Shown here: positions 8,615-41,375 of the stretch, one piece after another
Numbering within the stretch: the first letter of the stretch is position 1
Layout of the letters: each line of letters opens with the position of its first letter
Virus record (IMG/VR): IMGVR_UViG_3300046820_001270
Coordinates: 1 to 64,000 of that record
From: a virus
Taxonomy: Duplodnaviria > Caudoviricetes
Reading direction: 5' to 3' (one strand)
DNA length: 64,000 bases
Notes under the pieces: model-generated
Seen by the model: only the letters and a program-made list of their open reading frames with translations
Database searches by the model: none
What the model was told of the DNA's origin: nothing
Translations under genes and position numbers: made by a program

Positions 8615-9139
8615 ATGAGTACAGCATGGTATGTGGTAAAAGTTTTACCCGGTAAAGAAAGATCATTAACTGAACAATTCAATAAAGATATTGGATTGGG
8701 TAGAATAAACAAAATTGTAAGATTTGTTTGTCCTACTGAGAAAGAATTCGTTGTGGTTAAAAATAAAAAAGTAATTAGAGAAAAAGTATTATATAGTGGA
8801 TATCTTTATTTTGAATCTATTAAACAATTAGAAGATGATGATTTGAAGATAATATCTTTAATACCTAATATTATGGGTATGATGGGAGATAGGATGCCAA
8901 TGTTATTGAAAGAAACTGATGTTAGACGTATATTGAAAGATGATACATTAGAAGAACATATTGAAAGTAAGAAATTAAAATTTGATAATGGAGAACCTAT
9001 TATAGTGTGTGATGGACCATTTAATGATTTTAGTGGTATTATTAAGGAAGTTAAAGGAGACAAGGTAGATGTTGAGATAAAAATATTTGGAAGAAATACC
9101 GCAGTTTCATTAACTTTGGATCAAATACGAAAACCCTAA
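8615..9139 (+). CDS. nusG: Transcription termination/antitermination factor, NusG family
   Basis: NGN domain (WYVVKVLPGKE...VLYSGYLYF) plus KOW domain (GEPIIVCDGPFNDFSG...IFGRNTAV). Confidence 0.9.
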   Translation: MSTAWYVVKVLPGKERSLTEQFNKDIGLGRINKIVRFVCPTEKEFVVVKNKKVIREKVLYSGYLYFESIKQLEDDDLKIISLIPNIMGMMGDRMPMLLKETDVRRILKDDTLEEHIESKKLKFDNGEPIIVCDGPFNDFSGIIKEVKGDKVDVEIKIFGRNTAVSLTLDQIRKP

Positions 9140-13340: not shown

Positions 13341-13342
13341 AA

Positions 13343-18589: not shown

Positions 18590-18651
18590 TATATAATAAT
18601 AAAAAATATAAAAAATTGATAGAAATAACTCGAGGATCACAAAAAATTAAG

Positions 18652-18658
18652 TATTTAT
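18652..18658 (+). promoter_or_regulatory. TATTTAT motif (putative late promoter)
   Basis: AAGTATTTATA, 21 nt before the ATG at 18680. Confidence 0.55.
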
Positions 18659-18679
18659 AAACTAAACAAACAAACGTAG

Positions 18680-21600: not shown

Positions 21601-21871
21601 TTATAGTGGTACAACATTACAATTCAACACAGATAAATTCACAGTTGAATCAGCATCAGGAAACACAGTAATAGCGGGTACGTTAAAAGTAAGTGGAAAT
21701 GGAGCGGATGCAGGTACGAACACCTCAACTGTAACATACAAAAACTCAAGTGATGTATTTGGTGAGATTTCAGCAACATCTTCAAGTGTGGCGGTTACAT
21801 CAATGTTAGGATATAAAACATCTGACGGATCATTAACCTTCACAGATACAATCGACGGAGGAACATTCTAA
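18680..21871 (+). CDS. Fibre protein (1063 aa) with SGSNGT(N/D)GS repeat blocks
   Basis: N-terminus MAQIIKHRRG...GELIIATG, shared STKFGDT and WSFNHNL modules, C-terminus TIDGGTF. Confidence 0.8.
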   Translation: MAQIIKHRRGSISILKNTTARNGELIIATGSISDLSGPFIFIGSPVGTDEGVAGAFNAISKIYQGANAPSINAGTYGSGLDGTPFYASSEKKLYILNNSNVGNTSLNLVGNIEGNTISGVTITNLTGTTATFSSQVNVSGSLNVTGSLYINGTSYTAATSGTSGSNGTDGSSGTSGSNGTDGSSGSNGTNGSSGSSGSNGTNGSSGSNGTDGSSGSNGTDGSSGSSGSNGTNGSSGSSGSNGTDGSSGSNGTDGSSGSNGTNGSSGSSGSNGTNGSSGSNGTDGSSGTSGSNGTDGSSGSSGSNGTDGSSGSSGSNGTDGSSGSNGTNGSSGTSGDSLFALTGSIWSTTNSVRIVGALTSSVVSSSFVGDGAGLYNIPASGVTGLELNKIVSGSVSASIQSDGTFRVNGDTFINGTITANQLNINYVTSSVLYSSGSTKFGDTFDDLHEFTGSVNITGSLFLNGVTVGTGKLNTTDFNSYTSSVNSQFAGTSSFAVSSSYAVYAENAVIVSGQTKTLVIGSASTTWSFNHNLGYKYPAINVFDGSDKVVIPTEIEVIDSNNLKVYFNEAQTGTVIATVGGNGSSGSSGTAGTNGSSGSSGSNGTNGSSGSNGTDGSSGSSGSNGTNGSSGTSGSNGTDGSSGSSGSNGTDGSSGSNGTNGSSGSSGSNGTNGSSGSNGTDGSSGSSGSNGTNGSSGTSGSNGTNGSSGSNGTDGSSGSNGTDGSSGSSGSNGTNGSSGSSGSNGTDGSSGTSGSNGTNGSSGSSGSSGSNGTDGSSGTSGSNGTDGSSGTSVSVTGTNNFIGKFQSGATITLVDSSVVDNGTNVTVNSNLVVTGTTNIQGNTSVTGAFTVGSGSITSLGGDLFVSGNLQVLGSSTNVNIQSSTVAIGDNIILVNAYSPFQRYAGISGYDSGSADQSGSLLWDSTNNNWLTVDGSNNSSKVIGTTAGALGSETSLTSGTFPIASSDNTIGDSLLTYSGTTLQFNTDKFTVESASGNTVIAGTLKVSGNGADAGTNTSTVTYKNSSDVFGEISATSSSVAVTSMLGYKTSDGSLTFTDTIDGGTF

Positions 21872-21889
21872 AAATAGAATAAAATTAAT

Positions 21890-21920
21890 AAGGAGGACCC
21901 AAAAAGTCCTCCTTTTTTTT
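21890..21920 (+). terminator. Intrinsic terminator
   Basis: AAGGAGGAC-CCAAAAA-GTCCTCCTT followed by a T-run. Confidence 0.85.
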
Positions 21921-21961
21921 ATTCATATTAAAAAAATATTGTAATTTAAAACATTAAAAGA

Positions 21962-21968
21962 TATTTAT
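21962..21968 (+). promoter_or_regulatory. TATTTAT motif (putative late promoter)
   Basis: 4 nt before the ATG at 21973, downstream of a terminator. Confidence 0.5.
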
Positions 21969-21972
21969 TGGT

Positions 21973-24918
21973 ATGGCAACAACAATTCAAATCTTAACAA
22001 CAAATTATAGTGGTGAAACGGCCACTATTACCTTTTCACCATGTAGTGGAGGAACAATTAATTTAGGTTCACAAGTAATACCTTACAACTATGTAAGTGA
22101 AAATTACTTAGGTGATTATTCTTTATATTTTTCGGATTATGATCAAACATGTACTTTTACAATACCATGTTCGACACCAACTCCAACACCAACAGGTGAC
22201 CCAACTCCAACACCAACAATTGTTGTGACTGCTACACCTCTACCAACAGGAACCGCAACACCAACACCAACGGCAACTGATGTTCCACCAACACCAACGC
22301 CAACGGCTACAGAAGTACCAATACAATCATATGCTTACCAAATAGATGTTAGTGGGCAATATTTTGACCCTTATCAAGCGTGTCAAAATCAAGTAGTTAA
22401 TTACACTGTTTATACCTCTTATCCATCATTAAATACAGGACACATATTATATATTGATCCTGAACTTACTTCAGAGTATAATCCTGGATTAGGAAATTAC
22501 TTTATTATTGAAGATGCGTTTAATACATATGTTATTGATACAAATTATGGAGGAATAAATACCTTAACAAATTGTAATGACGTTCAACAACCCACACCAA
22601 CAGCAACTGCGACACCTACACCAACACCAACTGCAACTGAATATCCAATGGTACATTTAGGTTTAAGTGCCGATAATGGAAACACTGCGTGTGATAATCA
22701 TCTTTATAACTCATATAATGTCACAACTGAAGCTTTCGGATATAGTATGGGAACAAATTTATGTGATTCCAATGGAGTAACATTTACTGGAGTGGACATT
22801 ACAAATCTTGCAAATCCAACAGGTCTTCAATCAATATGGGTGTCTGATGGAACATATTCAAGATTCGGATGGTTAAATTCAATTGGTGTTGTTTTCTCAG
22901 GTTCAACATGTGTATTATGTGGATCTGCAACACCAACACCAACACCAACAGCTACAGATATTATAATTACACCAACTGTAAGTCAAGAACCAACTTCAAC
23001 TCCAACACCGACACCTACACAAACAGAAATGCCACCAACACATACACCAACACCAACACCAACACCAACTGTAAGTCAACAACCAACCCCAACACCAACA
23101 CCTACAAATAATCCTAATTCACCAACAACATTTAATGTATATGTTAGTGAAACGGGTGAGCAAATTGCATGTAATGGAGGAGATACACCTATGGGTGCTT
23201 TCCACCAATTTACAATTGTAGGTGATACAAATGATTTATGTTCATCAACACAATTTACTAATTGTTTTTTCATACCAACATATGATCTTTATACATTTTA
23301 TGTAAGTGATGGTACAAACTCTAGATTACTACAAAGAATAGGTGGAGTTTCAGGTACAACTGCAACTGCAATTGCAAGTTGTGAATTATGTGTTCCATTC
23401 CCAACGGCAACACCAACAGCAACACCAACCCCAACATTATTAATTACATCATTTAACGGTTTACAAATTTCTGGAGGATCAACTTTATACGAGGCTTGTC
23501 AAACTATTGGAACTAATAACGTATACGCAATCAATTCATTAAGTTTATATGATAATGGAATTTATTTGTATATCGATGAAACATTAACACAGGTTGCTCA
23601 AAATAATTATTTATATAAATTAATTTCGACAGATGGTTTAGACACCACATATATTGTAACAGTTGATGAGACAGGCATGATAACAAGTGTTAATGATTGT
23701 TCTACAATAAATCAACCAACACCTACGGCTACTAATGTACCACCAACGGGAACACCAACTAGTACCCCGGTACCACCAACTAGTACTCCTCATATTACAC
23801 CTCCACCACCAACTGTAAGTCCAACACCAACAGCTACAGATATTATAATTACACCAACTGTAAGTCAAGAACCAACTTCAACTCCAACTCCAACACCGAC
23901 ATCAACACCGGTATCATGTGAATGTCTTACAGTTTATAATGAGGGAGGTAGAAATATAACATTCCAATATGTTAGATGTTCAGATGGTATTTTAGTTCCA
24001 TTATCGGTTCCAAGAGGATCAAATAGAACGGTATGTGTACAGTCAGGTACTGATATAATATCTGACGACATTGGATTATTGACTGTGGTAGATAATGGAA
24101 CACCTTGTACTGTAAACGGCGACTGTGCAAACCCACCAACCGCAACACCTGTACCAGATCCAACATCAACTCCAGTACCACCACCAACTAGTACTCCAGT
24201 ACCACCACCAACTAGTACTCCAGTACCACCACCAACATCAACTCCAGTACCACCACCAACAGCAACACCAGATCAAACATCAAATTGGGTTAATATAACA
24301 ACACAATGTTATGGTTGTGATGTTTATTACATTCAAGAAGACCAAAATCCATATTCACCAACATACACTCAAACAAGACAAGGTTCATTAGTGGCAAGTA
24401 ACAGTGCTTCTTGTGGAGGATGTTGTGGTCAATCAACCGCAGCAAATTGGGTTAACGAAAGTACAGATTGTGATGGATTTACATTATATAATGTTCAAAG
24501 AGACACAAATAGTTGTTCAGCAACATATAATAATACAAGAAGAGGAAGTGATATAGCATACAATAGTCCAGCTTGTGGATATGTACCACCACCGACATCA
24601 ACACCGGTACCAGCACCAACACCAACACCTGGAACATCATATACATATCGATTAGGACCATCATACACATTGGCAAGCCAAGCATGTGGAAATTTCGGTA
24701 TGGATTTCTATACTGAAGTCTTCGCAGCAACGAATGTAATATATGAGGTACAACAATTCTTTACAGATTCTGGTTTAACAGCTCCATATTATGGAGAAAA
24801 TGAAACTCACGCATTTCAATTAATGGATGGAGCTTTACCAATTGGTATCTCATATTCAGGAAGAATTTCATACACAGGACAGGTATCGGATAGAACATTC
24901 TGTGCGGAACAACCTTAA
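21973..24918 (+). CDS. Pro/Thr-rich (mucin-like) multidomain surface/virion protein with Cys-containing domains
   Basis: PTPTPT and PPPTSTPV linkers separate about five related xAC-containing domains (YQACQ, TACDN, IACNG, EACQT, QACGN). Confidence 0.8.
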   Translation: MATTIQILTTNYSGETATITFSPCSGGTINLGSQVIPYNYVSENYLGDYSLYFSDYDQTCTFTIPCSTPTPTPTGDPTPTPTIVVTATPLPTGTATPTPTATDVPPTPTPTATEVPIQSYAYQIDVSGQYFDPYQACQNQVVNYTVYTSYPSLNTGHILYIDPELTSEYNPGLGNYFIIEDAFNTYVIDTNYGGINTLTNCNDVQQPTPTATATPTPTPTATEYPMVHLGLSADNGNTACDNHLYNSYNVTTEAFGYSMGTNLCDSNGVTFTGVDITNLANPTGLQSIWVSDGTYSRFGWLNSIGVVFSGSTCVLCGSATPTPTPTATDIIITPTVSQEPTSTPTPTPTQTEMPPTHTPTPTPTPTVSQQPTPTPTPTNNPNSPTTFNVYVSETGEQIACNGGDTPMGAFHQFTIVGDTNDLCSSTQFTNCFFIPTYDLYTFYVSDGTNSRLLQRIGGVSGTTATAIASCELCVPFPTATPTATPTPTLLITSFNGLQISGGSTLYEACQTIGTNNVYAINSLSLYDNGIYLYIDETLTQVAQNNYLYKLISTDGLDTTYIVTVDETGMITSVNDCSTINQPTPTATNVPPTGTPTSTPVPPTSTPHITPPPPTVSPTPTATDIIITPTVSQEPTSTPTPTPTSTPVSCECLTVYNEGGRNITFQYVRCSDGILVPLSVPRGSNRTVCVQSGTDIISDDIGLLTVVDNGTPCTVNGDCANPPTATPVPDPTSTPVPPPTSTPVPPPTSTPVPPPTSTPVPPPTATPDQTSNWVNITTQCYGCDVYYIQEDQNPYSPTYTQTRQGSLVASNSASCGGCCGQSTAANWVNESTDCDGFTLYNVQRDTNSCSATYNNTRRGSDIAYNSPACGYVPPPTSTPVPAPTPTPGTSYTYRLGPSYTLASQACGNFGMDFYTEVFAATNVIYEVQQFFTDSGLTAPYYGENETHAFQLMDGALPIGISYSGRISYTGQVSDRTFCAEQP
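22939..23888 (+). repeat. 68-bp exact direct repeat (22939-23006 and 23821-23888)
   Basis: ccaacaccaacagctacagatattataattacaccaactgtaagtcaagaaccaacttcaactccaac occurs twice (encodes PTPTATDIIITPTVSQEPTSTP). Confidence 0.85.
24154..24270 (+). repeat. 24-bp tandem repeat encoding PPPTSTPV (about 4-5 units)
   Basis: ccaccaccaactagtactccagta units, two identical and the others degenerate. Confidence 0.8.
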
Positions 24919-24949
24919 TAAAAAATAAAATAAATTAAAATAAAATAAA

Positions 24950-25120
24950 ATGGGACATAGATTTAAAGTAGAATATCAAGTAGGTGAAGAAAAAATAATA
25001 TTTCATTGTGGTGCCTTTAGTAATTCAATAGAAGAATCACTAAACATAGCAACAATAGAGATAAACAAATATGTCGAAAGACAGGAAGGAACTGTCCTTT
25101 CAATCGAAAATGTACAATAA
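24950..25120 (+). CDS. 56-aa hypothetical protein (not in ORF track)
   Basis: Hand translation MGHRFKVEYQVGEEKIIFHCGAFSNSIEESLNIATIEINKYVERQEGTVLSIENVQ*; A-rich upstream region; followed by a terminator. Confidence 0.65.
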   Translation: MGHRFKVEYQVGEEKIIFHCGAFSNSIEESLNIATIEINKYVERQEGTVLSIENVQ

Positions 25121-25127
25121 AAACATC

Positions 25128-25157
25128 AAAGGAGACCTTAAATAAGTCTCCTTTTTT
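25128..25157 (+). terminator. Intrinsic terminator
   Basis: AAAGGAGAC-CTTAAATAA-GTCTCCTTT plus TTT. Confidence 0.85.
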
Positions 25158-25169
25158 ATTTATTAAATG

Positions 25170-25176
25170 TATTTAT
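25170..25176 (+). promoter_or_regulatory. TATTTAT motif (putative late promoter; second copy at 25157-25163)
   Basis: ATGTATTTATA followed by two hairpins and the ATG at 25238. Confidence 0.5.
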
Positions 25177-25237
25177 AATAAGACCTACATAGGTCTTTAA
25201 CCGTGATATATATCACAAGGATTTAGAACACATATAT

Positions 25238-28200
25238 ATGAGTCAAATAGTAAAACTACGTAGAAGTTCCACAGGTGGAAATAGACCTACTAACTCCCAA
25301 TTACAATTAGGAGAATTAGCAATAAACACAACCGATGGTAAAATTTATTTCTCCAAATCGGGGTCATTAAACACCTCAATTGAGGAAGTTTTAACTACAA
25401 ATACTCAAAACACAGGTTCATTAAATCTTAGTGGTAGTTTCAATTTAATTGGAGCGGAAAATATAACCGGATCTTTAATCACAACAGGTTCTCTAAGAGT
25501 TTTAGGGGATACATCATTAACGTCATTAGTCGTATCAGGTTCAGACCCCGTTGCAAATGTTCAAGCATTTGTTCCCGATAGTACTGTATACAATAATGCA
25601 AGTTTTAATAGTCCAGATAGAGTCGCTTCGGGTATTCGTTTTAATTGGAGTAATGAAAACTGGACTATAGGTGCCGCAAGAGGTTTAACAACTGATGTTG
25701 ATGGTTTGGTGTTTAGTAGAAATGGTGTTAGACAAATGTTACTCGATGAGAATAATAATTTAGTTCTTTCAGGTTCAATTAATTTAACAGGGTCTATATA
25801 TGTTAATGGTGCGGTTGTTGGAACAGGTAAATTAGATGAAACAACATTTAATACATATACAGGTTCAAATACATCTACATTTGCAGGAACATCATCATAT
25901 GCATCATATGCATTAACAGCTTCTTATGTATCAAACCCAACAATAGTTTCAGGTTCAACAAAGAAAACAACGGTAACATCAGCTTCAACAACATGGTCGT
26001 TGAATCATGCGATGAACGAAAGATATCCATCAATTACAGTATTTGATAGTGATGGTTATGTTGTCATACCAACAGGTGTTAGAGCAATAGATTCAAATAA
26101 TATTGAAGTATATTTTTCAGAGGCACAAACAGGAACAGTAATTGCAACTGTCGGTGGTAGTGGTGCAGTTGGTGCAACAGGTGCCTCAGGTACAAATGGT
26201 ACTTCAGGAACAAGTGGAGCAGACGGTATTGGTGGTTACACACAAACATATGCATCAGCAACAACTTGGTCAGTTGCACACAATTTAGATTTAGATTATC
26301 CAGGTGTAACGGTTTGGGATAGTAATAGAAAAGTTATAATCCCAAGTGAGATAACATCAATAGATTCAAACAATTTACAAATAACATTCCCAATTGCACA
26401 AGCGGGGGAAGTTCATATAGTTAGAGGTGGACACATGATTAGTGGTTCACAAGATTTATCTGCAGTTGGAACAATAACACCATCCGCAAATGGTTTATAT
26501 AATTTAGGTAGTGTATCTAAACAATTTAATAATGTTTATATTTCAGGTAGTCTTTTAGTAAATGGAGTACCATATAGTAGTGGACAAAATATAGATACAA
26601 GTTCATTCGCAACAACAGGTTCAAATACATTTAAAGGAACACAAACATTTAGTGGATCATTAATACCTGTTGGTAGTGGTTCATATGATTTAGGTAGTGA
26701 GTCAAATCCATTTAGACACTTATACTTATCAAGTGCATCATTATATATTGATGGACAAAAAGTTTTAGGTTCAACAAATCAGGAATTACAAATCACAACA
26801 GATAATGGACAATCTATTAAGATTTTAGAGCAAGGTACTGATACAATTACATTTCAAACTGTGGATGGAGATATTCAATTGAAGTCATCCGGTGGAGGTA
26901 ATATATTAATTGATCCAACAACAGGTTCGGTCGATATTAGAGGAAATGTTATAGTTCAAGATGGATTTAAAATATTAAGTTCAGGTGGTAATAGTGTTGT
27001 TTTTGCTGATGACATTATTGTATCAGGTTCGGCTAATTTCACAAATGGAGTTACAATTGGTGGAGTATCATATGCATCGGCAACATCTGGTACATCCGGT
27101 TCTAACGGAACAAATGGTTCTTCAGGAACTAGTGGAAGTAACGGATCATCAGGAACATCAGGGTCTAACGGAACAAATGGATCTAGTGGAACGAATGGTT
27201 CTTCAGGTTCTAACGGAACAAATGGAACTAGTGGAACGAATGGTACGTCAGGTTCTAACGGAACAAATGGTTCTTCAGGTACATCAGTAACTGTTTCCGG
27301 TACTAATGATGTAATAGGTAAATTTAGTTCAGGAACATTAGTTAATTCAAACATAACTGACAACGCTTCATTAGTTAATATTAATTCAAACACAACAATA
27401 ACAGGATCATTGACGATTACACAAAACTTAAATGTTTTGGGATCTTCGTCAATTACTTATACAACTGCATCTCAATTAAGAGTAAACGACAACGTAATCA
27501 CAGTAAACGCTTCATCACCAGGTGTAAGATTTGCGGGTCTGTCGGTAATTGATAGTGGTTCATCACCTTTGGTTTCGGGTTCATTCTTGTTTGACTCATT
27601 AAACAATCAATTTGTTTATGTTCACACAAACCAATCTACGGTGACATCATCGGTAGTTATGGTAGGTGCACAGACTTATAATAGTTTAGGAAACGAAATA
27701 TTACCAACAACAAATAGAGTATTAAAATCTTTAGGTCAAGAACATCTTGGTGATTCAAATATCTCAGATAACGGTACGACAGTATCTATTAATGGAGGTT
27801 TAATTGTAACAGGTTCTATCTTATCAACAGTTACTCCATTAGTTTCAGGTTCTTCACAAATATCATTTAATGGTATAACAGATAAACCAAGTTTAGTTAG
27901 TGGATCATCACAAATAGTTTATTCAGGTTTAACAGGAATACCTTCAGGTATTGTATCGGGTTCATTACAAGTTGATGTAATGTCAACAACAAACATTGCG
28001 AGATTGGCAACAACCGGTTCTAATACATTTACGGCAAATCAAAATATTAGTACAACAAGAACAAATGGTTCTAATACAAATGTACTTACATTATCTGATA
28101 ATGTAACAGGAGTTCAAACTCCTGGATTTGGTTTGAGAATACAATATCAATCAAATGGGACAGGTGTTAATGCTGCTATAGGTTTAGAAAATGGCGGAGG

Positions 28201-28594
28201 AGGTACAAATAACGAATCACAAATTTCATTGTATACTCAAAATACTGCAGGAGCATTAACTAGACAAGTATTAGTAGGTTCAACGGGTAATCTAACCGTT
28301 ACTGGAACTATTACCGAAAACTCATCATTACGATATAAAGAAAATGTTGAAACTATTAAATATGGTTTGGATAAAGTTCTTCAAATGAGAGGTGTTACAT
28401 ATGATAAAAAGGATAATGGTGTGAAGGAAATGGGTGTAATTGCAGAAGAAATTCATGAAGTTTTACCTGAAGTAGTTTTGAAAAATGAAGAAGGTGATAT
28501 AGATTCGGTTTCGTATGGTAGAATTACCGCAGTATTGATTGAAGCCATAAAAGATTTAAAGAAAGAAATTGAAGAATTAAAGGCAAATAAATAA
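25238..28594 (+). CDS. Tail fibre protein with C-terminal intramolecular chaperone (peptidase S74)
   Basis: N-term IVKLRRS...GELAINTTDGKIYF; Gly-X-Y blocks; C-term SSLRYKENV...RGVTY...MGVIAEE...SVSYGRITAVLIEAIKDL coiled coil. Confidence 0.88.
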   Translation: MSQIVKLRRSSTGGNRPTNSQLQLGELAINTTDGKIYFSKSGSLNTSIEEVLTTNTQNTGSLNLSGSFNLIGAENITGSLITTGSLRVLGDTSLTSLVVSGSDPVANVQAFVPDSTVYNNASFNSPDRVASGIRFNWSNENWTIGAARGLTTDVDGLVFSRNGVRQMLLDENNNLVLSGSINLTGSIYVNGAVVGTGKLDETTFNTYTGSNTSTFAGTSSYASYALTASYVSNPTIVSGSTKKTTVTSASTTWSLNHAMNERYPSITVFDSDGYVVIPTGVRAIDSNNIEVYFSEAQTGTVIATVGGSGAVGATGASGTNGTSGTSGADGIGGYTQTYASATTWSVAHNLDLDYPGVTVWDSNRKVIIPSEITSIDSNNLQITFPIAQAGEVHIVRGGHMISGSQDLSAVGTITPSANGLYNLGSVSKQFNNVYISGSLLVNGVPYSSGQNIDTSSFATTGSNTFKGTQTFSGSLIPVGSGSYDLGSESNPFRHLYLSSASLYIDGQKVLGSTNQELQITTDNGQSIKILEQGTDTITFQTVDGDIQLKSSGGGNILIDPTTGSVDIRGNVIVQDGFKILSSGGNSVVFADDIIVSGSANFTNGVTIGGVSYASATSGTSGSNGTNGSSGTSGSNGSSGTSGSNGTNGSSGTNGSSGSNGTNGTSGTNGTSGSNGTNGSSGTSVTVSGTNDVIGKFSSGTLVNSNITDNASLVNINSNTTITGSLTITQNLNVLGSSSITYTTASQLRVNDNVITVNASSPGVRFAGLSVIDSGSSPLVSGSFLFDSLNNQFVYVHTNQSTVTSSVVMVGAQTYNSLGNEILPTTNRVLKSLGQEHLGDSNISDNGTTVSINGGLIVTGSILSTVTPLVSGSSQISFNGITDKPSLVSGSSQIVYSGLTGIPSGIVSGSLQVDVMSTTNIARLATTGSNTFTANQNISTTRTNGSNTNVLTLSDNVTGVQTPGFGLRIQYQSNGTGVNAAIGLENGGGGTNNESQISLYTQNTAGALTRQVLVGSTGNLTVTGTITENSSLRYKENVETIKYGLDKVLQMRGVTYDKKDNGVKEMGVIAEEIHEVLPEVVLKNEEGDIDSVSYGRITAVLIEAIKDLKKEIEELKANK

Positions 28595-33630: not shown

Positions 33631-34362
33631 ATGATTACTAATCAAGACTTCATAACAAATAATATAACGACCAATTTAGGTGAACCTGTTCCATATAAAT
33701 GGACACACGGGGCAACAACCAAACATATGGGTGATGGACTTATTGTATATTCAATAGTGCAACATATGAGGGCAAAAAATTGTCTTTGTATTGGTTCAGG
33801 TGGTGGTTATATACCCCGTATTATGACACAAGCAAGAATTGATTTACACAAGCAACAAATTTTTGAGGGAAATAGTGATTTAAATTGGGGAGATATTGGA
33901 ACGACCTATCTGGTTGACGCTTGCAATGGGGTAGGAGGACCTAACGACTTACAGGATGAGAATTCACACTTCCGTTATACTTTTCACCCCAGATTGATTA
34001 AATCAACGTCAGAAGAGGCGTATTATAATTTCTTTGTTTTACAGGATATTAAATTAGATTTTATCTTTATTGACGGAGATCATTCATATGAAGGAGTTAA
34101 AAAAGATTTTGAATTATATTCACAATTATTAACGGATAAAGGAATTATAATTATACACGATACAGATTCAGATTATGAGGAAAAACTCATAGTTTCTGAG
34201 GATGCAAAAAAAGATCACCATAGATTTGATGGACCATCTAAGTTTATTGAAGAATTAGAAAAAAACCCATCATATAATTTGATTAATTTATTTAATTTTG
34301 GTATATTACCTAATAAACCGTCATCTAGCGGTATTACGGTAATTAATAAGAAAAATGGTTAG
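33631..34362 (+). CDS. Class I SAM-dependent methyltransferase (Methyltransf_24-like, probable O-methyltransferase)
   Basis: LCIGSGGG, DFIFIDGDHSYEGVKKDF, IIIIHDT. Confidence 0.85.
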   Translation: MITNQDFITNNITTNLGEPVPYKWTHGATTKHMGDGLIVYSIVQHMRAKNCLCIGSGGGYIPRIMTQARIDLHKQQIFEGNSDLNWGDIGTTYLVDACNGVGGPNDLQDENSHFRYTFHPRLIKSTSEEAYYNFFVLQDIKLDFIFIDGDHSYEGVKKDFELYSQLLTDKGIIIIHDTDSDYEEKLIVSEDAKKDHHRFDGPSKFIEELEKNPSYNLINLFNFGILPNKPSSSGITVINKKNG

Positions 34363-35212
34363 ATTATTAACAGTTATTGGTCACGGAGTTAACTTACTTC
34401 CCCATTTCATCAAACATTATGAAAAACATGTAGATGAAATTAACATTGCCGTTTACGAGACTGAATTATATCCTAATTTAACTAAAGAGATTAATGAAGT
34501 AATAAAAAATTATGAAAAAGTTAAGGTTGTAATAACAATACAAGAAAGAGTATTTGATTGGGAAAAGGTAACACACTTATATAATTTTATCAAATCAAAA
34601 CAAAAAGATAGTTGGTATGTTATTGCAGATATTGATGAATTTCATTTATATCCAAATGATGATTTACATAAATTAATATATGACTGTCAAGAAAATAATT
34701 GGGACATTGTTAGAGGTGGATTTATTGATAGAATTGGTAGAGGAGGTGAGTTTAGTGAGTTAGTTAATGATATATCAATATGGGAACAATTCCCAAATGC
34801 GGGATTTTTTAGATATCCTATGAGTCAAGCGTGTCCAAATAAGATTTGTGTGATGAAAGGTTATGTTGACGTAACATCAGGACAACATTATGCTAAAATA
34901 GATGATCACACAACATGGAGGTGGCAAGGATGGGATCACCCGTTGATTGCACCAATTGAGACCCATTCAGTCCAAGTACATCATTTTAAATGGGATTCAA
35001 CATCAATTGAAAGAGTGTTAAATGTTGCAAACATTGACGAAGACTATGCATTTTCAAATGAGTATTTTAAAATGTATAAAGAACTTAAAAAAACAAACTT
35101 TAAAATAGATTTATTAAAGTCTGAATATATGTTTGAATTAGGATTAATTAATCCTGAATTTAATGATTATAAAAATTGGAATAAATTAATTAAAAAAATT
35201 GTTTCAATATAA
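34355..35212 (+). CDS. GT-A fold glycosyltransferase (GT2-like)
   Basis: LPHFIKHY, WYVIADIDEF (DxD), NKICVMK, VHHFKW. Confidence 0.7.
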   Translation: MVRLLTVIGHGVNLLPHFIKHYEKHVDEINIAVYETELYPNLTKEINEVIKNYEKVKVVITIQERVFDWEKVTHLYNFIKSKQKDSWYVIADIDEFHLYPNDDLHKLIYDCQENNWDIVRGGFIDRIGRGGEFSELVNDISIWEQFPNAGFFRYPMSQACPNKICVMKGYVDVTSGQHYAKIDDHTTWRWQGWDHPLIAPIETHSVQVHHFKWDSTSIERVLNVANIDEDYAFSNEYFKMYKELKKTNFKIDLLKSEYMFELGLINPEFNDYKNWNKLIKKIVSI

Positions 35213-36660
35213 TGAAATTAGCAATAATAGTACCGTATAGAGATAGACGTAGTAATTTAGATATATTCATACCACACATGGAAGAATTTTTATCTAACAA
35301 ACAAATAGATTATAAGATTTTTGTTTCAGAACAATCCGACGACAGACCATTTAATTATGGTAAAATTTGTAATGCTATATTTAATGAAATAAAAGATGAC
35401 TACGATTATTTTTGTTTTCATGATGTTGATATGTTACCAATAAACGACGATGCTGATTATTCGTATAAAGAAGAACCAACTCATTTAGTTTTTGAAGATG
35501 AAGATGAAAATGTAATATTACCGTACAATCAATATTTCGGCGGAGTAGTAATATTCAAAAAAGAAGATTTCATCAAAATAAATGGATTTGCAAATGATTA
35601 TTGGGGTAAAGGATATGTTGATTTAGATTTATTATTTAGATGTCAAAAAAACAATTTACCAATAATCAAAAATTATAATTACAGTGTTAAGAATAGTATA
35701 AAACAAGATCTTAAACACCGAAATATAAGTAAAAGATTATCTAAAGTTGAGTTATATGAAAATTCAATAATTGTTAATATGGATTCTAATATAATTGCAA
35801 AAGATTTTACGTTAAGCTTTTACTACACACAAAAACCATTTGTTACAAGTAAAGTTGTTTTATTCAGAACATTAGACACGGTAACAAATGCGGAAAAACA
35901 TAGCCATTTATTTGTTAGTAATAATGATCTACAAATTTTTACCGTAAATGGACAGTTAATTATTCAATTTATGAATAATAATAGTCTATTCCAAATTGAT
36001 ATTAATAGTAATATTGATTTAACCGCACTAAACCACTTTACATTTGTACATAATAGTAAAACAAAAGAATTTACGTTTTACTTAAATGGAATTGAACATA
36101 CAAGTAAAAAATATGACATAGATTACCAATTTTCAAATAAAAATGTTATTATTGGTAATATCGATAATAAAAATATTTTAGAATTATATGATTTAAAATT
36201 ATTTACCACTTCTTTAACAATAAATGAAATTATTAAAAATTATTACTACGGCATTGATTCAAATTGTTTAGATTTTAATCAATTATGTGTTTATCAAGAT
36301 ATTGACGTGTTATTAGATAAACAAATGAATATATGGAAATTAATGGCTAGAACAACGGTTACTAAAGAAAATCAAATTTTAGGTGAAACTAAGATTAATG
36401 ATAAATTAATTCATCAGTTTGGAAAAATAAAATATACACCAATTAAAATGAACGGTAGATATAAATTATTAAATAAAAAATATGAAGAAATTGAAGAAAC
36501 ACATCATCCGGATATTTTGGAAAACAAAAGAACATATTACGAGGACTTATTAAGTGGTAGAATAAAAATTGATAAATTCGGACTTAAGAGTGTAAAATAC
36601 AAATTACTAAATAGGGTGGATTTTAATGAAAACACTGAATGGTTAAAAGTTAGTTTATGA
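35212..36660 (+). CDS. GT7 (beta-1,4-galactosyltransferase-like) glycosyltransferase with lectin-like insert, divergent active site
   Basis: IIVPYRDR, PFNYGKICN, FHDVDMLP, YFGGV, NGFANDYWGKGYVDLD; fold resumes at GRYKLL...GLKSVKYK. Confidence 0.8.
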   Translation: MKLAIIVPYRDRRSNLDIFIPHMEEFLSNKQIDYKIFVSEQSDDRPFNYGKICNAIFNEIKDDYDYFCFHDVDMLPINDDADYSYKEEPTHLVFEDEDENVILPYNQYFGGVVIFKKEDFIKINGFANDYWGKGYVDLDLLFRCQKNNLPIIKNYNYSVKNSIKQDLKHRNISKRLSKVELYENSIIVNMDSNIIAKDFTLSFYYTQKPFVTSKVVLFRTLDTVTNAEKHSHLFVSNNDLQIFTVNGQLIIQFMNNNSLFQIDINSNIDLTALNHFTFVHNSKTKEFTFYLNGIEHTSKKYDIDYQFSNKNVIIGNIDNKNILELYDLKLFTTSLTINEIIKNYYYGIDSNCLDFNQLCVYQDIDVLLDKQMNIWKLMARTTVTKENQILGETKINDKLIHQFGKIKYTPIKMNGRYKLLNKKYEEIEETHHPDILENKRTYYEDLLSGRIKIDKFGLKSVKYKLLNRVDFNENTEWLKVSL

Positions 36661-37070
36661 TAAAGGAGTTATTACAAAATGAGATGTTTGTTCAAAAATT
36701 GGAAACAATTGCTGAAGAAATTAATTTAATAAAAGAAAATAAAGGTGATTTTAGTTTTTTTGTCCCCAAATTTATTATAAACATGGAAGGATTATTAAAA
36801 ATGTTCCATCCTAATGGATCAAATACATTTGATTACGCATCTAAATTTGAATCAACAAAAGAAGAGAAGATAAGATTACAGGAGGAAAAAAAACAACATT
36901 ACGAAACAATTGCAAGTGCGATGGAATTATATAAAAGAATTGAAGTAATTGATGCTAACATATCATATATTGAAAATGATATATCTGATTCAGAATGGAA
37001 AGTATGGAAGGAAGGTCATGAAGGTATCGCGTTTGATAAAGTAAAAAAATATTTAAATAAAAACAATTAA
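36657..37070 (+). CDS. Hypothetical helical protein
   Basis: 137 aa, ATGA-coupled to the upstream gene. Confidence 0.7.
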   Translation: MIKELLQNEMFVQKLETIAEEINLIKENKGDFSFFVPKFIINMEGLLKMFHPNGSNTFDYASKFESTKEEKIRLQEEKKQHYETIASAMELYKRIEVIDANISYIENDISDSEWKVWKEGHEGIAFDKVKKYLNKNN

Positions 37071-37071
37071 A

Positions 37072-37311
37072 ATGGAAAATAAGAAAGAATTAACAACAGA
37101 AGAAAGAGGAGTACAAGCATTAGAGAGTATTGCAAATTCTGCAAGAGACATAAGTGATTGGGTTTATTCTTTAAATACGGAATCGTGGTCTGAAAGACTT
37201 GAGTGGTATTTAAATGAATTTTACTTATTAGCAAAGGCTAAAACAATCGGATCATCAAATAGACCAACAAAAGAATATGAAGAAGAAACTGGCGATAGTA
37301 GTCCCTTATAG
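37072..37311 (+). CDS. Small hypothetical protein
   Basis: 79 aa, overlaps the next start. Confidence 0.65.
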   Translation: MENKKELTTEERGVQALESIANSARDISDWVYSLNTESWSERLEWYLNEFYLLAKAKTIGSSNRPTKEYEEETGDSSPL

Positions 37312-38527
37312 AGATAGACCAACACATTTAAAAACTTTTGTATCTCATATGAAATCTTATTTAAAAGAATATGATTATGAGATTATAGTTGTTGAACAAT
37401 TTAACAATAAACCATTTAATAGAGGTAAATTGTTAAATGTTGGTGCAAAATATGCAAATGACAACGGATTTGATTATTTATGTTTTCATGATGTTGATAT
37501 GTTACCAATTAAGGTAGATTACTCATATCCTGAACACCCAACTAGTTTAATATCTGAATTAGAAAATAAGGATGGTAATATTTTCTTCTCATATTTTGGA
37601 GGTATTACTTTATTTAAGGTAGAGGATTTTTTTGATATAAATGGATACTCAAACAATTATTGGGGGTGGGGGTTTGAAGACACCGACCTTTTTTACAGAG
37701 TAACACATGGAGGACTATTCTTTGATACTGAAACTATCGGTGAAGATAATTATTCATTTATAGGATCAATCAGTTTAAAGGAATTAGATTACATTAAAAT
37801 ACCAATTACATCTTCATTTATCAATAATGATTTTGAAATAAAATTAACGGCTAAAATAGAATCGAAATATCTTGACGAGAATAAAGAATATGACGAGTTT
37901 CCAATTCTATCAATACCTGGTTATAACATAGGTTTATTTTATAATTCATTTAATAGGTATTTTATTCAGATATACGATCAAAATAAAAAACCATATTCAA
38001 TAACGAGTGACATATTAGACGATATTACATCAATTTTTAAATTTATTAAAGTAGGAAATAAAGTTTCTTTTCATATTAATGAAAAACTAATAGGTGAAAT
38101 TGAAATGGATAAACCAATTTTAGATTTAAACAATAAATTTATGTATGTTGGTTCATTTTCAGAAAAGGAAAATATTGAATTTGACATGGATTTAATCGAT
38201 TTAAATATTAATGGATATTCATTAGGTACTAACGATTTTGAGATGTTTGGAGGAATAATAAATGAAGAAAAAGTAATACCACATAAAACATCTTTACCAA
38301 AACCAGTTAGAAGAGAAGGGTTATTTAGAGAATTATATCATGATACTAACGCATCTATAAATAAATCTTGGGTACACCAAGAAACAAGAAAGAATCAAAT
38401 TTATTATAACAATTTTGTAAAACAAAATTTAATTGATTTTACAAAAGAGGGATTGAACTCATTAAATTATAATTTGATATCGGAAAGTGATAATTTAGAT
38501 TATAAAATTTTATCAGTAGAAATATGA
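37277..38527 (+). CDS. GT7 glycosyltransferase with lectin-like insert
   Basis: IVVPYRDR, FNRGKLLNVG, FHDVDMLP, YFGG, NGYSNNYWGWGFEDTD; after the insert EGLFRELYH...EGLNSLNY. Confidence 0.85.
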   Translation: MKKKLAIVVPYRDRPTHLKTFVSHMKSYLKEYDYEIIVVEQFNNKPFNRGKLLNVGAKYANDNGFDYLCFHDVDMLPIKVDYSYPEHPTSLISELENKDGNIFFSYFGGITLFKVEDFFDINGYSNNYWGWGFEDTDLFYRVTHGGLFFDTETIGEDNYSFIGSISLKELDYIKIPITSSFINNDFEIKLTAKIESKYLDENKEYDEFPILSIPGYNIGLFYNSFNRYFIQIYDQNKKPYSITSDILDDITSIFKFIKVGNKVSFHINEKLIGEIEMDKPILDLNNKFMYVGSFSEKENIEFDMDLIDLNINGYSLGTNDFEMFGGIINEEKVIPHKTSLPKPVRREGLFRELYHDTNASINKSWVHQETRKNQIYYNNFVKQNLIDFTKEGLNSLNYNLISESDNLDYKILSVEI

Positions 38528-39936
38528 GTCATAAGTTAGGTATTTGTATACCATATAGAAACAGAGAAGAACATTTAAAAAAATTAATTCCACATTTATC
38601 TAAACACCTAAATGACCAAGAAATTGAACATAAGTTCTATGTTGGACACCAAGTTGATGATAAGTTATTTAATAGAGGCGCAATGAAAAATATTGCGGCA
38701 AAATATGCATTTGACGATGGTTGCGATTATGTGGCTTGGCACGATGTTGATATGTTACCTAAATTAGACGCTGATTATTCTTATCCAACCGAAAACCCAT
38801 TACATATTGCAACTAAGTTATCTAAATATAACTACACTTTAGGGTATGATCAGTATTTCGGAGGAGTTATTTTATTTACCAAAGAACAAGTTGAAAAGAC
38901 CAATGGTTATTCAAACGACTATTGGGATTGGGGTATGGAGGACGATGATTTATTTTGGAGATGTTATTTTGAGGGAATGACGACAGGTAAAATATTTAAA
39001 AACTACACAGATAAATCATTTGGATATTTCGATGGAACATCTTCACATGTTGAAATTGCAAATAGAACTGCCGCAGAATGTTTAAATAAAAATCATACAA
39101 TTTCCGTGTTAGTTAGTGCAGAACAACAAACAAACAAAGTACCCATATTTTTAATTGGAGATGAAGAAAAACAATTTATTGAGTACCCAATTTTAACTAA
39201 AAGTGGTGGTTATAGTTATATGTTATCTTTCAATAATTCAAGGGCATATACAATGAGGTTATTTAACGATGCACGTACACAAATATACAATTGGATCAAA
39301 AGATTTGAAAACATGTGGACTTGGATAACCATATCAGTTAATACCGATACTAAGGAAATTTATTTTTATCTAAATGACGAATTGGTAAGAAATATCAATG
39401 ACGTTAAAGAAAAACTACCTGTTTCAATTACTGGAAATGGATTATTAAGGTACGATATGAGAAACCCATTTTATTTAGGGTTTGATAAACAAACAAATAA
39501 TAGATTTAAAGGTAAAATTTCGGAGATTAAAGTTTATAACAAGTACTTTACCCCTGAAGAAATATCTACCGTTCTTGAGAAGAAAACTACCGAAGGATTG
39601 GTATTTGAGTACGATTTCACAAACAATGATAATATAGTTTTAAATAATGTTAAAATAGAGAAAGAAAACATCAACATTATTGAAAATATCATACCATATA
39701 GAAAAGAAGGTAGTTTTGAATGTTTAGAACATATAGATGAGGGATTTAAGAACGGAACATGGGCTAAAGGTGAAACCACCGCAAGAAATGAAAAGAGATT
39801 TATCATGGAAATGCAACAAAATAAGATTAATTACAAATCGGAAGGTTATAATGAAGTTTTAGATATTATGGAAATTGTTAATATAAATGAAACTGATTAT
39901 CATAACACAGTATTTATTAATGTTAATATGAAATAA
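38524..39936 (+). CDS. GT7 glycosyltransferase with LamG-like insert
   Basis: ICIPYRNR, FNRGAMKN, WHDVDMLP, YFGGV, NGYSNDYWDWGMEDDD; insert has FDG...WTWITI...FYLN...IKVYN; resumes EGSFECLEH. Confidence 0.85.
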   Translation: MSHKLGICIPYRNREEHLKKLIPHLSKHLNDQEIEHKFYVGHQVDDKLFNRGAMKNIAAKYAFDDGCDYVAWHDVDMLPKLDADYSYPTENPLHIATKLSKYNYTLGYDQYFGGVILFTKEQVEKTNGYSNDYWDWGMEDDDLFWRCYFEGMTTGKIFKNYTDKSFGYFDGTSSHVEIANRTAAECLNKNHTISVLVSAEQQTNKVPIFLIGDEEKQFIEYPILTKSGGYSYMLSFNNSRAYTMRLFNDARTQIYNWIKRFENMWTWITISVNTDTKEIYFYLNDELVRNINDVKEKLPVSITGNGLLRYDMRNPFYLGFDKQTNNRFKGKISEIKVYNKYFTPEEISTVLEKKTTEGLVFEYDFTNNDNIVLNNVKIEKENINIIENIIPYRKEGSFECLEHIDEGFKNGTWAKGETTARNEKRFIMEMQQNKINYKSEGYNEVLDIMEIVNINETDYHNTVFINVNMK

Positions 39937-39992: not shown

Positions 39993-41375
39993 ATGGATTA
40001 CTTAGAAGAAGTCAAACATAATTTAGACGGGGTGGGTTGCGGTTTTTGTTTAGCGAAATGGACACAAGTTACTATGCATTTACATAATGGATTTACCCAT
40101 TCTTGTCACCATCCGAGTCCACATAAAATACCTTTAGAGGAGTTAGAAACAAACCCAACCGCATTACATAACACATCATTTAAGAAGAAGATTCGAGAAG
40201 AAATGTTATTAGGTAAAAAACCTAGCGAGTGTAATTATTGTTGGAATATTGAAAAGAATTCAGAATCATATTCTGATAGAGTTTTTAAAAGTTCAGAAGA
40301 GTGGTCATTAAAACATTTTAAAGAGATTAAGGAATTACCTTGGGACGCTAACTATAACCCAAAATACGTCGAAGTTAGTTTTTCAAATACATGTAATTTC
40401 AAATGTTCATATTGTGGACCTACGTTTTCATCTCGATGGGTGGAAGAATCCGAACAACATGGAGGTTACCCAACATCAAATAATTTTAATAATTTAGATT
40501 GGCTTAAAAATACAAATCAGATCCCTTACAAACAAACTGAAGATAATCCATATTTGGAGGCATTTTGGAAATGGTGGCCTGTATTATATACAACTTTAGA
40601 CACATTTAGAATAACAGGAGGAGAACCTTTATTATCAAAAGACACATGGGGTATTTTAGAATATATTGCAACAACTGAAAATCCAAACAGAGATTTAAAT
40701 ATATCAATCAATTCTAATTTAGGAGTACCAAAAAACTTGATAGAAAAAATGGTAGATCTATGTGAAAAAATAATTAACGAAGGAAGAGTTAAGACTTTAA
40801 TAATTTTTACATCTTGTGAATCATATGGTGAACAGGCAGAGTACGGTAGACATGGATTAAATTATAGTAATTTTATTGAAAATGTTGAATATATATTACA
40901 AAGATTACCAAAGGTTACTATTAACATTATGGCAGCCTTTAACGTATTTTCTCCATTTGGTTATACTAAATTAGTTGACGAAGTCTTCCAATTAAAAAAG
41001 AAGTACCATAATAATGAGAGATATTGGGTTTCCGCAATTCAGTTAGATACGTCGTATATTAGATCCCCATCATTCTTATCTGTTAAAATATTAGAAGATG
41101 ATCATAAGAAATTAATTTTGGAAAGTGCAAAGAAGAGTTTTTATTATGCTATGCCTGAATTTACAAATGAATATTATGGTTTTTCAAATACCGAAGTTCA
41201 AAAAATAAAAAGATTGTATGATTATGCAATTGGTAACGATTATTTATATGACGTTGAACAAAATAGAGTTGATTTTGTAAACTTTGTCGATGAACATGAT
41301 AAAAGAAGAGGAACAAACTTTTTACAAACATTTCCTGAATTAGAAAATTTATATAACAATGTTAAAAATAGATAA
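39993..41375 (+). CDS. Radical SAM protein with N-terminal twitch/SPASM-like Cys motif
   Basis: FCLAKW..SCHH..CNYCW, then CNFKCSYC, ITGGEP, D.RRGTNF..TFPEL. Confidence 0.9.
   Translation: MDYLEEVKHNLDGVGCGFCLAKWTQVTMHLHNGFTHSCHHPSPHKIPLEELETNPTALHNTSFKKKIREEMLLGKKPSECNYCWNIEKNSESYSDRVFKSSEEWSLKHFKEIKELPWDANYNPKYVEVSFSNTCNFKCSYCGPTFSSRWVEESEQHGGYPTSNNFNNLDWLKNTNQIPYKQTEDNPYLEAFWKWWPVLYTTLDTFRITGGEPLLSKDTWGILEYIATTENPNRDLNISINSNLGVPKNLIEKMVDLCEKIINEGRVKTLIIFTSCESYGEQAEYGRHGLNYSNFIENVEYILQRLPKVTINIMAAFNVFSPFGYTKLVDEVFQLKKKYHNNERYWVSAIQLDTSYIRSPSFLSVKILEDDHKKLILESAKKSFYYAMPEFTNEYYGFSNTEVQKIKRLYDYAIGNDYLYDVEQNRVDFVNFVDEHDKRRGTNFLQTFPELENLYNNVKNR

Follow-up and report, generated by a model that had tools for sequence, protein, structure and literature searches.

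Galactosyltransferase-like GT7 enzymes with a LamG-type domain nested in the catalytic fold, encoded by an uncultured aquatic phage

The window analyzed here, a stretch of 64,000 nucleotides from IMG/VR record IMGVR_UViG_3300046820_001270, encodes three galactosyltransferase-like GT7 enzymes, in each of which a LamG-type domain is nested within the catalytic fold. The genome that carries them is that of a giant uncultured aquatic phage. Our best explanation, in which we place middling confidence, is that these soluble GT7 enzymes of the beta-1,4-galactosyltransferase (beta4GalT) type build an oligosaccharide on a fiber-type acceptor, with the nested LamG domain setting acceptor choice; a glycan on the virion is probably what the surrounding gene cassette produces. 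Literature searches on the nested GT7-LamG architecture found no paper describing it. New here are the positional ortholog clades, the conserved cassette including a 79-aa open reading frame (ORF), the absence of predicted membrane helices, and the genes added in relatives.

All three enzymes are encoded on the plus strand. GT7-1 (positions 35212-36660; 482 aa) comprises a GT7 core (aa 1-149), a LamG-type insert (approximately aa 150-411; nt 35659-36444), and a GT7 tail (aa 412-482). The same organization is seen in GT7-2 (37277-38527; 416 aa), with its core at aa 1-147, a LamG sandwich insert at approximately aa 148-343 (nt 37718-38305), and a tail at aa 344-416, and in GT7-3 (38524-39936; 470 aa), with its core at aa 1-155, a LamG module plus beta-rich linker at approximately aa 156-392 (nt 38989-39699), and a tail at aa 393-470. 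Each of them matches the Pfam families Glyco_transf_7N and Glyco_transf_7C far over the gathering cutoffs (66-79 and 52-71 bits, respectively), and phmmer searches against beta4GalT1 give an E value of 1e-32. AlphaFold2 (AF2) models, which cover GT7-2 and GT7-3, reach a whole-chain pTM of 0.84-0.85 and have a GT-A fold that can be superposed on beta4GalT1, with the C-terminal segment included; they suggest that the GT7 core and the LamG module are packed rigidly as two domains. We compared the enzymes with animal beta4GalT1 and beta4GalT7 (CAZy GT7; PDB 1TVY, 1NF5, 2AE7, 4IRQ, and 3LW6). Unlike these, the phage proteins lack a membrane anchor, a stem, and any equivalent of residues 130-177, which points to a cytoplasmic location. 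As part of the best explanation, and with the same middling confidence, we predict that they are soluble cytoplasmic inverting GT-A transferases of the beta4GalT type.

Comparison with insert-less homologs, in which 24 residues separate the EDDD motif from the conserved His, places the insert of all three paralogs at one common site, between the helix that follows WGxEDDD and the strand bearing that His. This agrees with the original prediction of a fixed insertion site inside the GT7 fold. The His-bearing strand leads in turn into the GT7 flexible loop. Measured against the insert-less homologs, the inserts are about 258 aa (GT7-1), 194 aa (GT7-2), and 237 aa (GT7-3) long, in line with the roughly 190-250 aa first proposed; relative to the animal enzymes, a module of 190-260 aa replaces about 10 residues at a point that we take to be the R334-A337 region of bovine beta4GalT1. 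The Pfam domain Laminin_G_3 is matched by GT7-3 with 40.5 bits and by GT7-1 with 27.9 bits at residues 196-316 (cutoff, 27.6), and GT7-2 gives no match to it; the typical LamG strand F.G.I..V.IYN..L...E is present in GT7-3. In the models, the insert is a discrete jelly-roll beta-sandwich (LamG/ConA-like), as had been anticipated. A short beta-rich linker accompanies the sandwich in GT7-1 and GT7-3.

The DXD motif (D252-V-D254 of bovine beta4GalT1) is kept in all three enzymes as HDVD at residues 70, 71, and 73 of GT7-1, GT7-2, and GT7-3, respectively. One canonical GT7 motif order and a tail His had been claimed for every paralog, and both are fully present in GT7-2 (HDVD71, YFGG106, YWGWGFEDTD128-137, and H355). 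GT7-3 is likewise canonical (HDVD73, YFGG111, YWDWGMEDDD133-142, and H403), except that its tail reads EGYNEV and not GL.S..Y. In GT7-1, HDVD70 and YFGG108 are retained, but the loop reads YWGKGYVDLD (130-139) and not WG.ED.D, and a Lys (K421) takes the position of the tail His. Hence, the catalytic loop residues W314/E317/D318 of the animal enzyme (WGxEDD) are present in GT7-2 and GT7-3, whereas GT7-1 keeps the Asp alone. The YWGKGYVDLD-type loop is common to about 35 orthologs, and the K421 position varies freely within the GT7-1 subclade. Because this loop and the absence of the tail His extend to its orthologs, the active site of GT7-1, as judged from sequence, is noncanonical: the Trp, Glu, and His found in animal beta4GalT are gone, and the DVD and the catalytic Asp remain. 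These losses could reflect a different donor or metal arrangement or a role as a noncatalytic partner. H355 of GT7-2 and H403 of GT7-3, the predicted metal-ligand His residues, are at least 95% conserved and are candidate counterparts of M344 or H347, in the segment of beta4GalT1 that precedes the long flexible loop. The phage enzymes retain the Tyr that in beta4GalT1 favors Gal over GalNAc.

In a phylogenetic tree, a single split (support, 99/94) separates the inserted from the short proteins, which suggests a single origin of the inserted form. The positional clades are supported by values of 100/99 for GT7-1 and of 91/87 and 100/100 for the others. By tree and gene position, the three genes are old positional ortholog clades in a fixed order and not recent copies that differ in their inserts only, which calls for a revision of the original interpretation; GT7-1 of this phage has in addition lost three canonical active-site features. 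The insert-less homologs (216-225 aa) read ...RCxxxGLxxxR-KxxxFxSLxH without interruption and align to beta4GalT1 across the whole domain (E value, 2.5e-39). More broadly, microbial and viral proteins of 210-260 aa that are GT7-like but lack the insert (e.g., P0427, P0457, and BFVD A0A5J6VLB6, a Megaviridae "glycosyltransferase group 7-like" protein) are 35-40% identical to the phage cores and share their equally short N terminus and C-terminal ...KV.L strand, differing in that ...GLxxxR joins KxxxFxSLxH directly. This form occurs in bacterial genomes (Steroidobacter and Peristeroidobacter) and giant viruses; the inserted form, by contrast, is labeled viral only (100% Uroviricota in ESM Atlas clusters). 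The C-terminal ...KVSL and ...SVEI endings of the phage enzymes form the final strand of the GT7 fold and recur in bacterial and animal homologs, so that we reject a reading of them as an enzyme end tag.

Between clades, the insert shows 16-21% identity versus 44-50% in the N-terminal core; it is thus the most divergent part of the proteins, as originally proposed. Within clades, identity of at least 95% across 110-120 homologs is reached at 32 (GT7-2) and 51 (GT7-3) positions of the insert, many of them polar or aromatic, and a motif of the form E-[YF]-P-I ... F-x-N-S-x-R is common to these two clades. This conservation supports the view that the insert is under functional constraint and is no passive spacer. 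The conserved patch of the GT7-3 insert comprises E220/Y221/P222, F236-R240, and the loop K205-D213, which is modeled with low confidence; its GT7-2 counterpart comprises Y205-G215 and F221-R227. The catalytic residues of GT7-3 are D141 and H403. We infer that the LamG insert recognizes the acceptor, although two observations count against this: the clade 1 insert is poorly conserved in a broadly sampled set, and a single insert residue (G228 of GT7-3) is near-invariant across all three clades, which argues against a binding site common to all of them and so weighs on the best explanation.

That this one Gly is all that the clades have in common favors instead a rather unlikely alternative, namely, that the insert serves for scaffolding or docking and tethers the transferases to each other, to upstream free-standing LamG proteins and fibers, or into the virion, while the GT7 core alone sets the acceptor. 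Laminin_G_3 domains are indeed frequent in phage structural proteins, three free-standing LamG_3 proteins are encoded just upstream of the GT7 genes, and GT7-1 is conserved despite its seemingly compromised active site, as a structural partner would be. However, the dense polar conservation in clades 2 and 3 fits a ligand site or an active-site interface better than a generic adaptor, and the inserts resemble the neighboring LamG proteins at the family level only (best E value, 0.001). The latter result also led us to reject recent copying of the inserts from those free-standing genes.

The three genes are part of a cassette that lies 3' of fiber genes in the order methyltransferase, GT2-like enzyme, (GT7-1), 79-aa ORF, GT7-2, GT7-3, and radical SAM enzyme, all on the plus strand. 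By synteny, its first conserved gene codes for a Methyltransf_24 SAM-dependent methyltransferase (33631-34362). Directly 5' of the GT7 genes, in a conserved position, is a GT2-like (GT-A) glycosyltransferase of 285 aa (34355-35212), a candidate for the transferase that starts the chain or for a fourth one in the cassette; its match to Pfam Glyco_tranf_2_4 is subthreshold (E value, 0.0015), and the corresponding phage clusters in the Atlas are named GT2-like or Glyco_transf_92. Between GT7-1 and GT7-2 lies a 137-aa ORF (36657-37070) with weak similarity (27-32% identity at the N terminus) to short ORFs that occupy the equivalent place in two related loci. It is followed by the unannotated 79-aa ORF (37072-37311), which overlaps the start of GT7-2 by 35 nt. 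This ORF is found at L001, L002, L003, L005, L009, and L013, directly 5' of the clade 2 GT7 gene in all related cassettes examined, with 41-58% identity over five loci and 16 invariant columns (e.g., EER..ALE.IA ... WS.R..YL.EF), and it matched no Pfam family. Its product is a candidate partner of the cassette enzymes; a predicted complex with GT7-2 scored 0.01, with a pLDDT of <50 for the partner, and is evidence neither way. The radical SAM gene (39993-41375) always follows GT7-3. The cassette adjoins Peptidase_S74 fibers in five metagenome contigs, and the methyltransferase/GT2-like/small ORF/GT7/radical SAM core, which is what this comparison covers, recurs in six MAG-binned contigs.

We infer that the fibers are the glycosylation target. 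Five fiber genes lie upstream of the cassette (11229-28594, plus strand) and are candidate acceptors; four of the five contain Pro-free collagen-like (G-[TS]-[SND])n runs, and one has a terminal Peptidase_S74. Pro and Thr account for 12% and 18%, respectively, of the fiber ORF at 21973-24918, which has PTPTPT and STPVPPPT linkers. Candidate acceptor peptides from the fibers are GTSGSNGTDGSS, PTPTPTPT, and STPVPPPT. The collagen-like repeats first put forward as acceptor peptides, which lack Pro, are just one candidate among several. Collagen-type hydroxyproline or hydroxylysine glycosylation of G-X-Y repeats was rejected for the window, as its repeats are G-[TS]-[SND], with Pro or Lys almost absent. 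In relatives, the GT7 block is accompanied by a prolyl-hydroxylase-like gene (2OG-FeII_Oxy_3), a PF11397 "GlcNAc" gene (Gnt1-type GlcNAc transferase; E value, 3e-34), and poly-Pro/(TPPP)n ORFs between fiber and cassette, which together give these loci a protein-glycosylation flavor. GlcNAc is the classical beta4GalT acceptor. Nevertheless, this Hyp-GlcNAc route may be inapplicable to the window phage, given that no PF11397 gene is found among the ORFs scanned in the window and that the collagen-like repeats have no Pro.

Under the best explanation, the cassette would assemble a short oligosaccharide, itself decorated, on an acceptor that is soluble, most likely Ser/Thr/Pro-rich fiber or fiber-associated proteins, which would be modified ahead of virion assembly. 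Each GT7 in turn would add one beta-linked hexose, as the retained Gal-over-GalNAc Tyr suggests, and the LamG module, with its rigid packing, would keep the growing glycan or the fiber beside the catalytic pocket and thereby govern acceptor choice. A more specific form of this proposal, which we advance tentatively, is that LamG is a built-in specifier that plays in cis the part that alpha-lactalbumin plays in trans, placed at the hinge of the flexible loop so as to link loop closure with the capture of the acceptor. The GT2-like enzyme, GT7-1, the 79-aa protein, GT7-2, and GT7-3 would then form a fixed assembly line that writes a defined, methylated oligosaccharide on Ser/Thr/(hydroxy)Pro-rich fibers in the host cytoplasm.

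The cassette belongs to a 30-kb island with six radical SAM genes, a carbamoyltransferase, an APS kinase, 2OG oxygenases, and a Trp halogenase; its radical SAM and carbamoyl-, sulfate-, and halogenase-type genes would suit a small-molecule or peptide product as well, which speaks against the best explanation. No membrane helices are predicted in the island (maximum 19-residue hydropathy, <1.4 in each of the 35 ORFs between 28.6 and 63 kb). Both features would fit GT7 enzymes acting on a soluble decorated oligosaccharide, a glycosylated peptide, or a small molecule (Nod-factor-like or RiPP-like). We regard this as unlikely: the GT7 block stays with the fiber module, away from the halogenase/ligase end of the island, NDP-sugar enzymes come after it in other phages, and in relatives it adjoins the hydroxylase-like and Hyp-GlcNAc-transferase-like genes and Pro-rich proteins noted above.

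Serotype conversion and DNA glucosylation are the best-known activities of phage glycosyltransferases and would fit remodeling of host envelope glycans (lipopolysaccharide, capsule, or S-layer glycan) during infection or glycosylation of phage DNA, although DNA glucosyltransferases are not known to belong to GT7. We consider such a role very unlikely even though it is the general reading given for moraphage core glycosyltransferases (PMC12619734), since neither a lipid-carrier transferase nor a flippase, a polymerase, or any membrane helix is present in the island, the genes are in a late structural module on the fiber strand, and no base-hydroxymethylation genes were seen in the 64-kb window.

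Other systems offer partial parallels to the soluble fiber-modifying cassette that we favor. The GT27 polypeptide GalNAc-transferases have a C-terminal ricin-type lectin domain, and alpha-lactalbumin specifies beta4GalT1. In both, a sugar-binding or protein module beside a GT-A site redirects acceptor choice, as predicted by analogy for the phage enzymes, but there it is appended or a separate protein, whereas the phage module is nested in the catalytic domain and is LamG rather than ricin. The hydroxyproline glycosylation of Skp1 proceeds through P4H1, Gnt1 (GT60), and then extension, all by cytoplasmic, soluble enzymes, and the virion glycosylation of mycobacteriophages likewise relies on soluble enzymes that modify protein in the cytoplasm. 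The related phages resemble it in having a P4H-like gene, PF11397, and Pro-rich proteins beside the GT7 block. Unlike the Skp1 system, the window lacks PF11397, the extension enzymes are GT7 rather than GT2, GT74, or GT77, and the phage glycan is a predicted one.

Known from textbooks as animal Golgi biochemistry, GT7 here forms a large phage-specific family that marks a conserved, fully soluble cassette beside fiber genes in uncultured aquatic jumbo phages, and a domain nested in the catalytic fold is a rare route to glycosyltransferase substrate selectivity. Should the cassette make a virion glycan, the phages with glycosylated virions would include abundant aquatic ones in addition to mycobacteriophages (Freeman et al. 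2023, as cited in PMC12619734), and glyco-engineering would gain compact, soluble enzymes of the beta4GalT kind whose recognition modules can be exchanged. If the specifier and assembly-line proposal also holds, thousands of aquatic phages would have an uncharacterized protein-glycosylation system of animal GT7 ancestry. The locus yields testable objects in the three enzymes, a natural insert-less loop, the 79-aa partner candidate, and the candidate acceptor peptides. Moraphages, which have Bacteroidota hosts, possess four core glycosyltransferase groups (PMC12619734), and a relationship of the source phage to them is only a possibility. Among 50,697 GenBank phage records, tblastn searches with GT7-3 (E-value cutoff, 1e-5) and GT7-2 (E-value cutoff, 0.01) and a blastn search with the whole stretch gave no matches, so that no cultured or deposited phage is usable as a model, and matches in PHROGs are marginal (phrog_1721 "galactosyl transferase"; E value, 4e-4). 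The family itself numbers 1,683-1,734 word-matched hits for GT7-2 and GT7-3 and 339 for GT7-1, with an additional 2,522 cluster representatives at an E value of 1e-10 or better.

All three GT7 (β4GalT-like) paralogues of the window, GT7#1 (35212-36660, + strand; 482 aa), GT7#2 (37277-38527, +; 416 aa), and GT7#3 (38524-39936, +; 470 aa), match the Pfam domains Glyco_transf_7N and Glyco_transf_7C far over threshold, with the latter matches ending at position 60 to 63 of the 78 in the profile; residues 2 to 155 of GT7#3 align with β4GalT1 with an E value of 1e-32. The Pfam scan also recovered a Laminin_G_3 domain in GT7#3 (40.5 bits) and, marginally, in GT7#1 (27.9 bits), and found no Laminin_G_3 match in GT7#2. 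AlphaFold2 models of GT7#2 and GT7#3 built on 40 to 42 homologues, a check that the original prediction had proposed, are confident (pLDDT 88.7 and 90.2 and pTM 0.85 and 0.84, respectively) and predict a LamG-type domain that lies inside the GT7 fold, not beside it. The same picture emerges from GT7 relatives of 210 to 225 aa that lack the insert and display the pattern EDDDxxxRCxxxGLxxxR-KxxxFxSLxH, one of which aligns with β4GalT1 over its whole length (E value of 2.5e-39). Measured against these proteins, the insert spans about 258 aa in GT7#1, 194 aa in GT7#2, and 237 aa in GT7#3, and its point of insertion is common to all three. The nested LamG module is a real and robust observation, and the models and insert-less relatives bear out in silico the structural half of the original interpretation, namely, a lectin-like domain placed within the catalytic fold at a fixed site. 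The two lowest-confidence stretches of the models lie directly C terminal to the tail His (residues 408 to 412 of GT7#3 and 357 to 365 of GT7#2), which is the site of the long flexible loop in β4GalT1.

The full GT7 motif set had been ascribed to all three proteins, but this does not hold for GT7#1, which reads YWGKGYVDLD at the WG.ED.D site and has K421 in the position of the tail His. The canonical Trp/Glu/Asp/His set is present in 254 of the family members gathered in this analysis. In about 35 close relatives of GT7#1, the Trp, Glu, and Asp sites are occupied by Lys, Val/Ile/Leu, and Asp, and the His position varies freely; GT7#1 and these relatives retain the DVD motif and the catalytic Asp. 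More distant clade 1 proteins (orthologues of GT7#1) keep the His and are variable at the Glu position (G, A, Q, H, S, T, or N). The Tyr of the YFGG motif, which in β4GalT1 favors Gal over GalNAc, is retained in GT7#1, GT7#2, and GT7#3. HMMER aligned the phage tail His to M340H of a human mutant chain (M344 in bovine numbering), whereas manual alignment on the G-x7-H spacing equates it with H347; both M344 and H347 are metal ligands in β4GalT1.

A maximum-likelihood tree of the three window proteins, 14 from five further contigs, and seven proteins that lack the insert resolved three clades that follow gene order (support of 100/99, 91/87, and 100/100 for clades 1, 2, and 3), with the insert-less proteins separated from the inserted ones at 99/94. 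The simplest history suggested by this topology is a single insertion and then triplication, well ahead of the divergence of these phages. Identity within clades is 63 to 72% for the N-terminal core, 44 to 53% for the tail, and 33 to 47% for the insert; between clades, the values are 44 to 50%, 21 to 26%, and 16 to 21%. Insert positions with ≥95% identity among 110 to 120 homologues number 51 in clade 3 and 32 in clade 2. Many of these positions are polar or aromatic, and an E-[YF]-P-I ... F-x-N-S-x-R motif is common to both clades; across all three clades, a single Gly is the only nearly invariant insert residue. Of the three parts of the protein, the insert evolves fastest, yet it is constrained. 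One conserved stretch, K205-D213 of GT7#3, is modeled with a pLDDT of <50, as would be expected of a functional loop. It is plausible that the LamG insert, under visible selection, recognizes the acceptor and sets specificity.

The genes belong to a conserved cassette, comprising a Methyltransf_24 gene, a ~283-aa GT2-like GT-A enzyme (34355-35212, +, in the window), GT7#1 (in some cases absent), one or more small ORFs, GT7#2, GT7#3, and a ~470-aa radical SAM protein, which recurs in five independent metagenome contigs (122 to 636 kb) and six MAG-binned contigs. A giant fiber gene lies a few genes upstream in all five metagenome contigs, with Peptidase_S74 in three of them; a form with two GT7 genes, lacking GT7#1, occurs in L085, L001, L002, L003, L005, and L009. 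A 79-aa ORF (37072-37311, +), below the 100- to 120-aa cutoffs of the first ORF listings, runs 35 nt into the start of GT7#2. It lies directly upstream of the clade 2 GT7 in 11/11 related cassettes examined, shows 41 to 58% identity and 16 invariant columns over five loci, and matched no family in a Pfam search; we consider it a strong candidate for a GT7#2 partner or, alternatively, a candidate specifier.

The window belongs to a contig of 334,492 bp, with a GC content of 25 to 40% and nearly all genes on the + strand. Its collagen-repeat and Peptidase_S74 fiber genes, amidase, and many tailoring enzymes identify the source as an uncultured jumbo phage. A D12-class N6-adenine DNA methyltransferase and a NusG/KOW-like protein (7761-8603 and 8615-9139, +) immediately precede an AAA ATPase and fiber genes, and a 509-aa ORF open at the window start (3-1532, +) has a TacA1-like antitoxin domain match (E value of 1.4e-6).

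None of the 35 consecutive ORFs at 28594-62937 (+) has a 19-residue hydropathy window of >1.4 or a predicted membrane helix, which indicates that this island encodes no lipid-carrier transferase, flippase, or polymerase and that the pathway is soluble. Many enzymes from 47339 onward have K-x-[LI]-[ILF]-like C-terminal tails (NKKLI, LKKLI, EKTLI, KVSLI, KKTII, and NKTLL). Candidate acceptors include four fiber genes (11229-21871 and 25238-28594, +) with long collagen-like (G-[TS]-[SND])n runs almost devoid of Pro; an N-G-[TS] sequon arises at every Y-position Asn of these runs. A 981-aa ORF (21973-24918, +; 12% Pro and 18% Thr) has PTPTPT and five STPVPPPT repeats linking Cys-containing globular modules, which amounts to mucin- or extensin-like linkers. 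In relatives, the gene next after the S74 fiber encodes a poly-Pro or (TPPP)n protein and is followed by a 2OG-FeII_Oxy_3 (prolyl hydroxylase-type) gene; L084 has a solid match to the PF11397 "GlcNAc" (Gnt1-type) transferase (E value of 3e-34), to which family the Skp1 Hyp-GlcNAc transferase belongs, and L086 has a weak HPAT match. This looks like a hydroxyproline glycosylation set (L084, 4071-7128; L081, 1956-3882; L086, 3346-6667) and, since GlcNAc is the classical β4GalT acceptor, suggests that Pro would be hydroxylated, Hyp-GlcNAc added, and the product extended by GT7. In the window, three 2OG-FeII_Oxy_3 genes lie farther downstream, and no PF11397 gene was found among the ORFs scanned; hence, the GT2-like enzyme may be the one that initiates here, on Ser or Thr.

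Word-seeded searches with the three GT7 proteins retrieved 1,734, 1,683, and 339 relatives (the last with GT7#1), nearly all labeled "hypothetical protein" and from freshwater and marine metagenomes, Tara included; an exhaustive search yielded 2,522 cluster representatives at an E value of ≤1e-10. ESM Atlas clusters with the 7N-Laminin_G_3-7C architecture are 100% viral by label (Uroviricota), and a single cluster of this kind is present in the AlphaFold DB (A0A2E0BNI5, generic name only). A search of 185,579 species genomes located the full-length form on only about eleven MAG contigs, all carrying the phage cassette; the insert-less form sits on real bacterial chromosomes (e.g., Steroidobacter) and is the only form among viral GT7s in BFVD. 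The GT7-LamG form was not found in GenBank phages, and a literature search for the nested architecture found no paper. The family is best filed as a GT7 with a nested LamG module that is abundant, phage specific, and unstudied. Four unnamed core glycosyltransferase groups have been described in "moraphage" aquatic jumbo phages of Bacteroidota (PMC12619734), and these may be the same genes. A 506-aa GT7 relative, P0162, is deposited under the ostracod Cyprideis torosa as an "unnamed protein product" and probably represents phage DNA included in an animal assembly.
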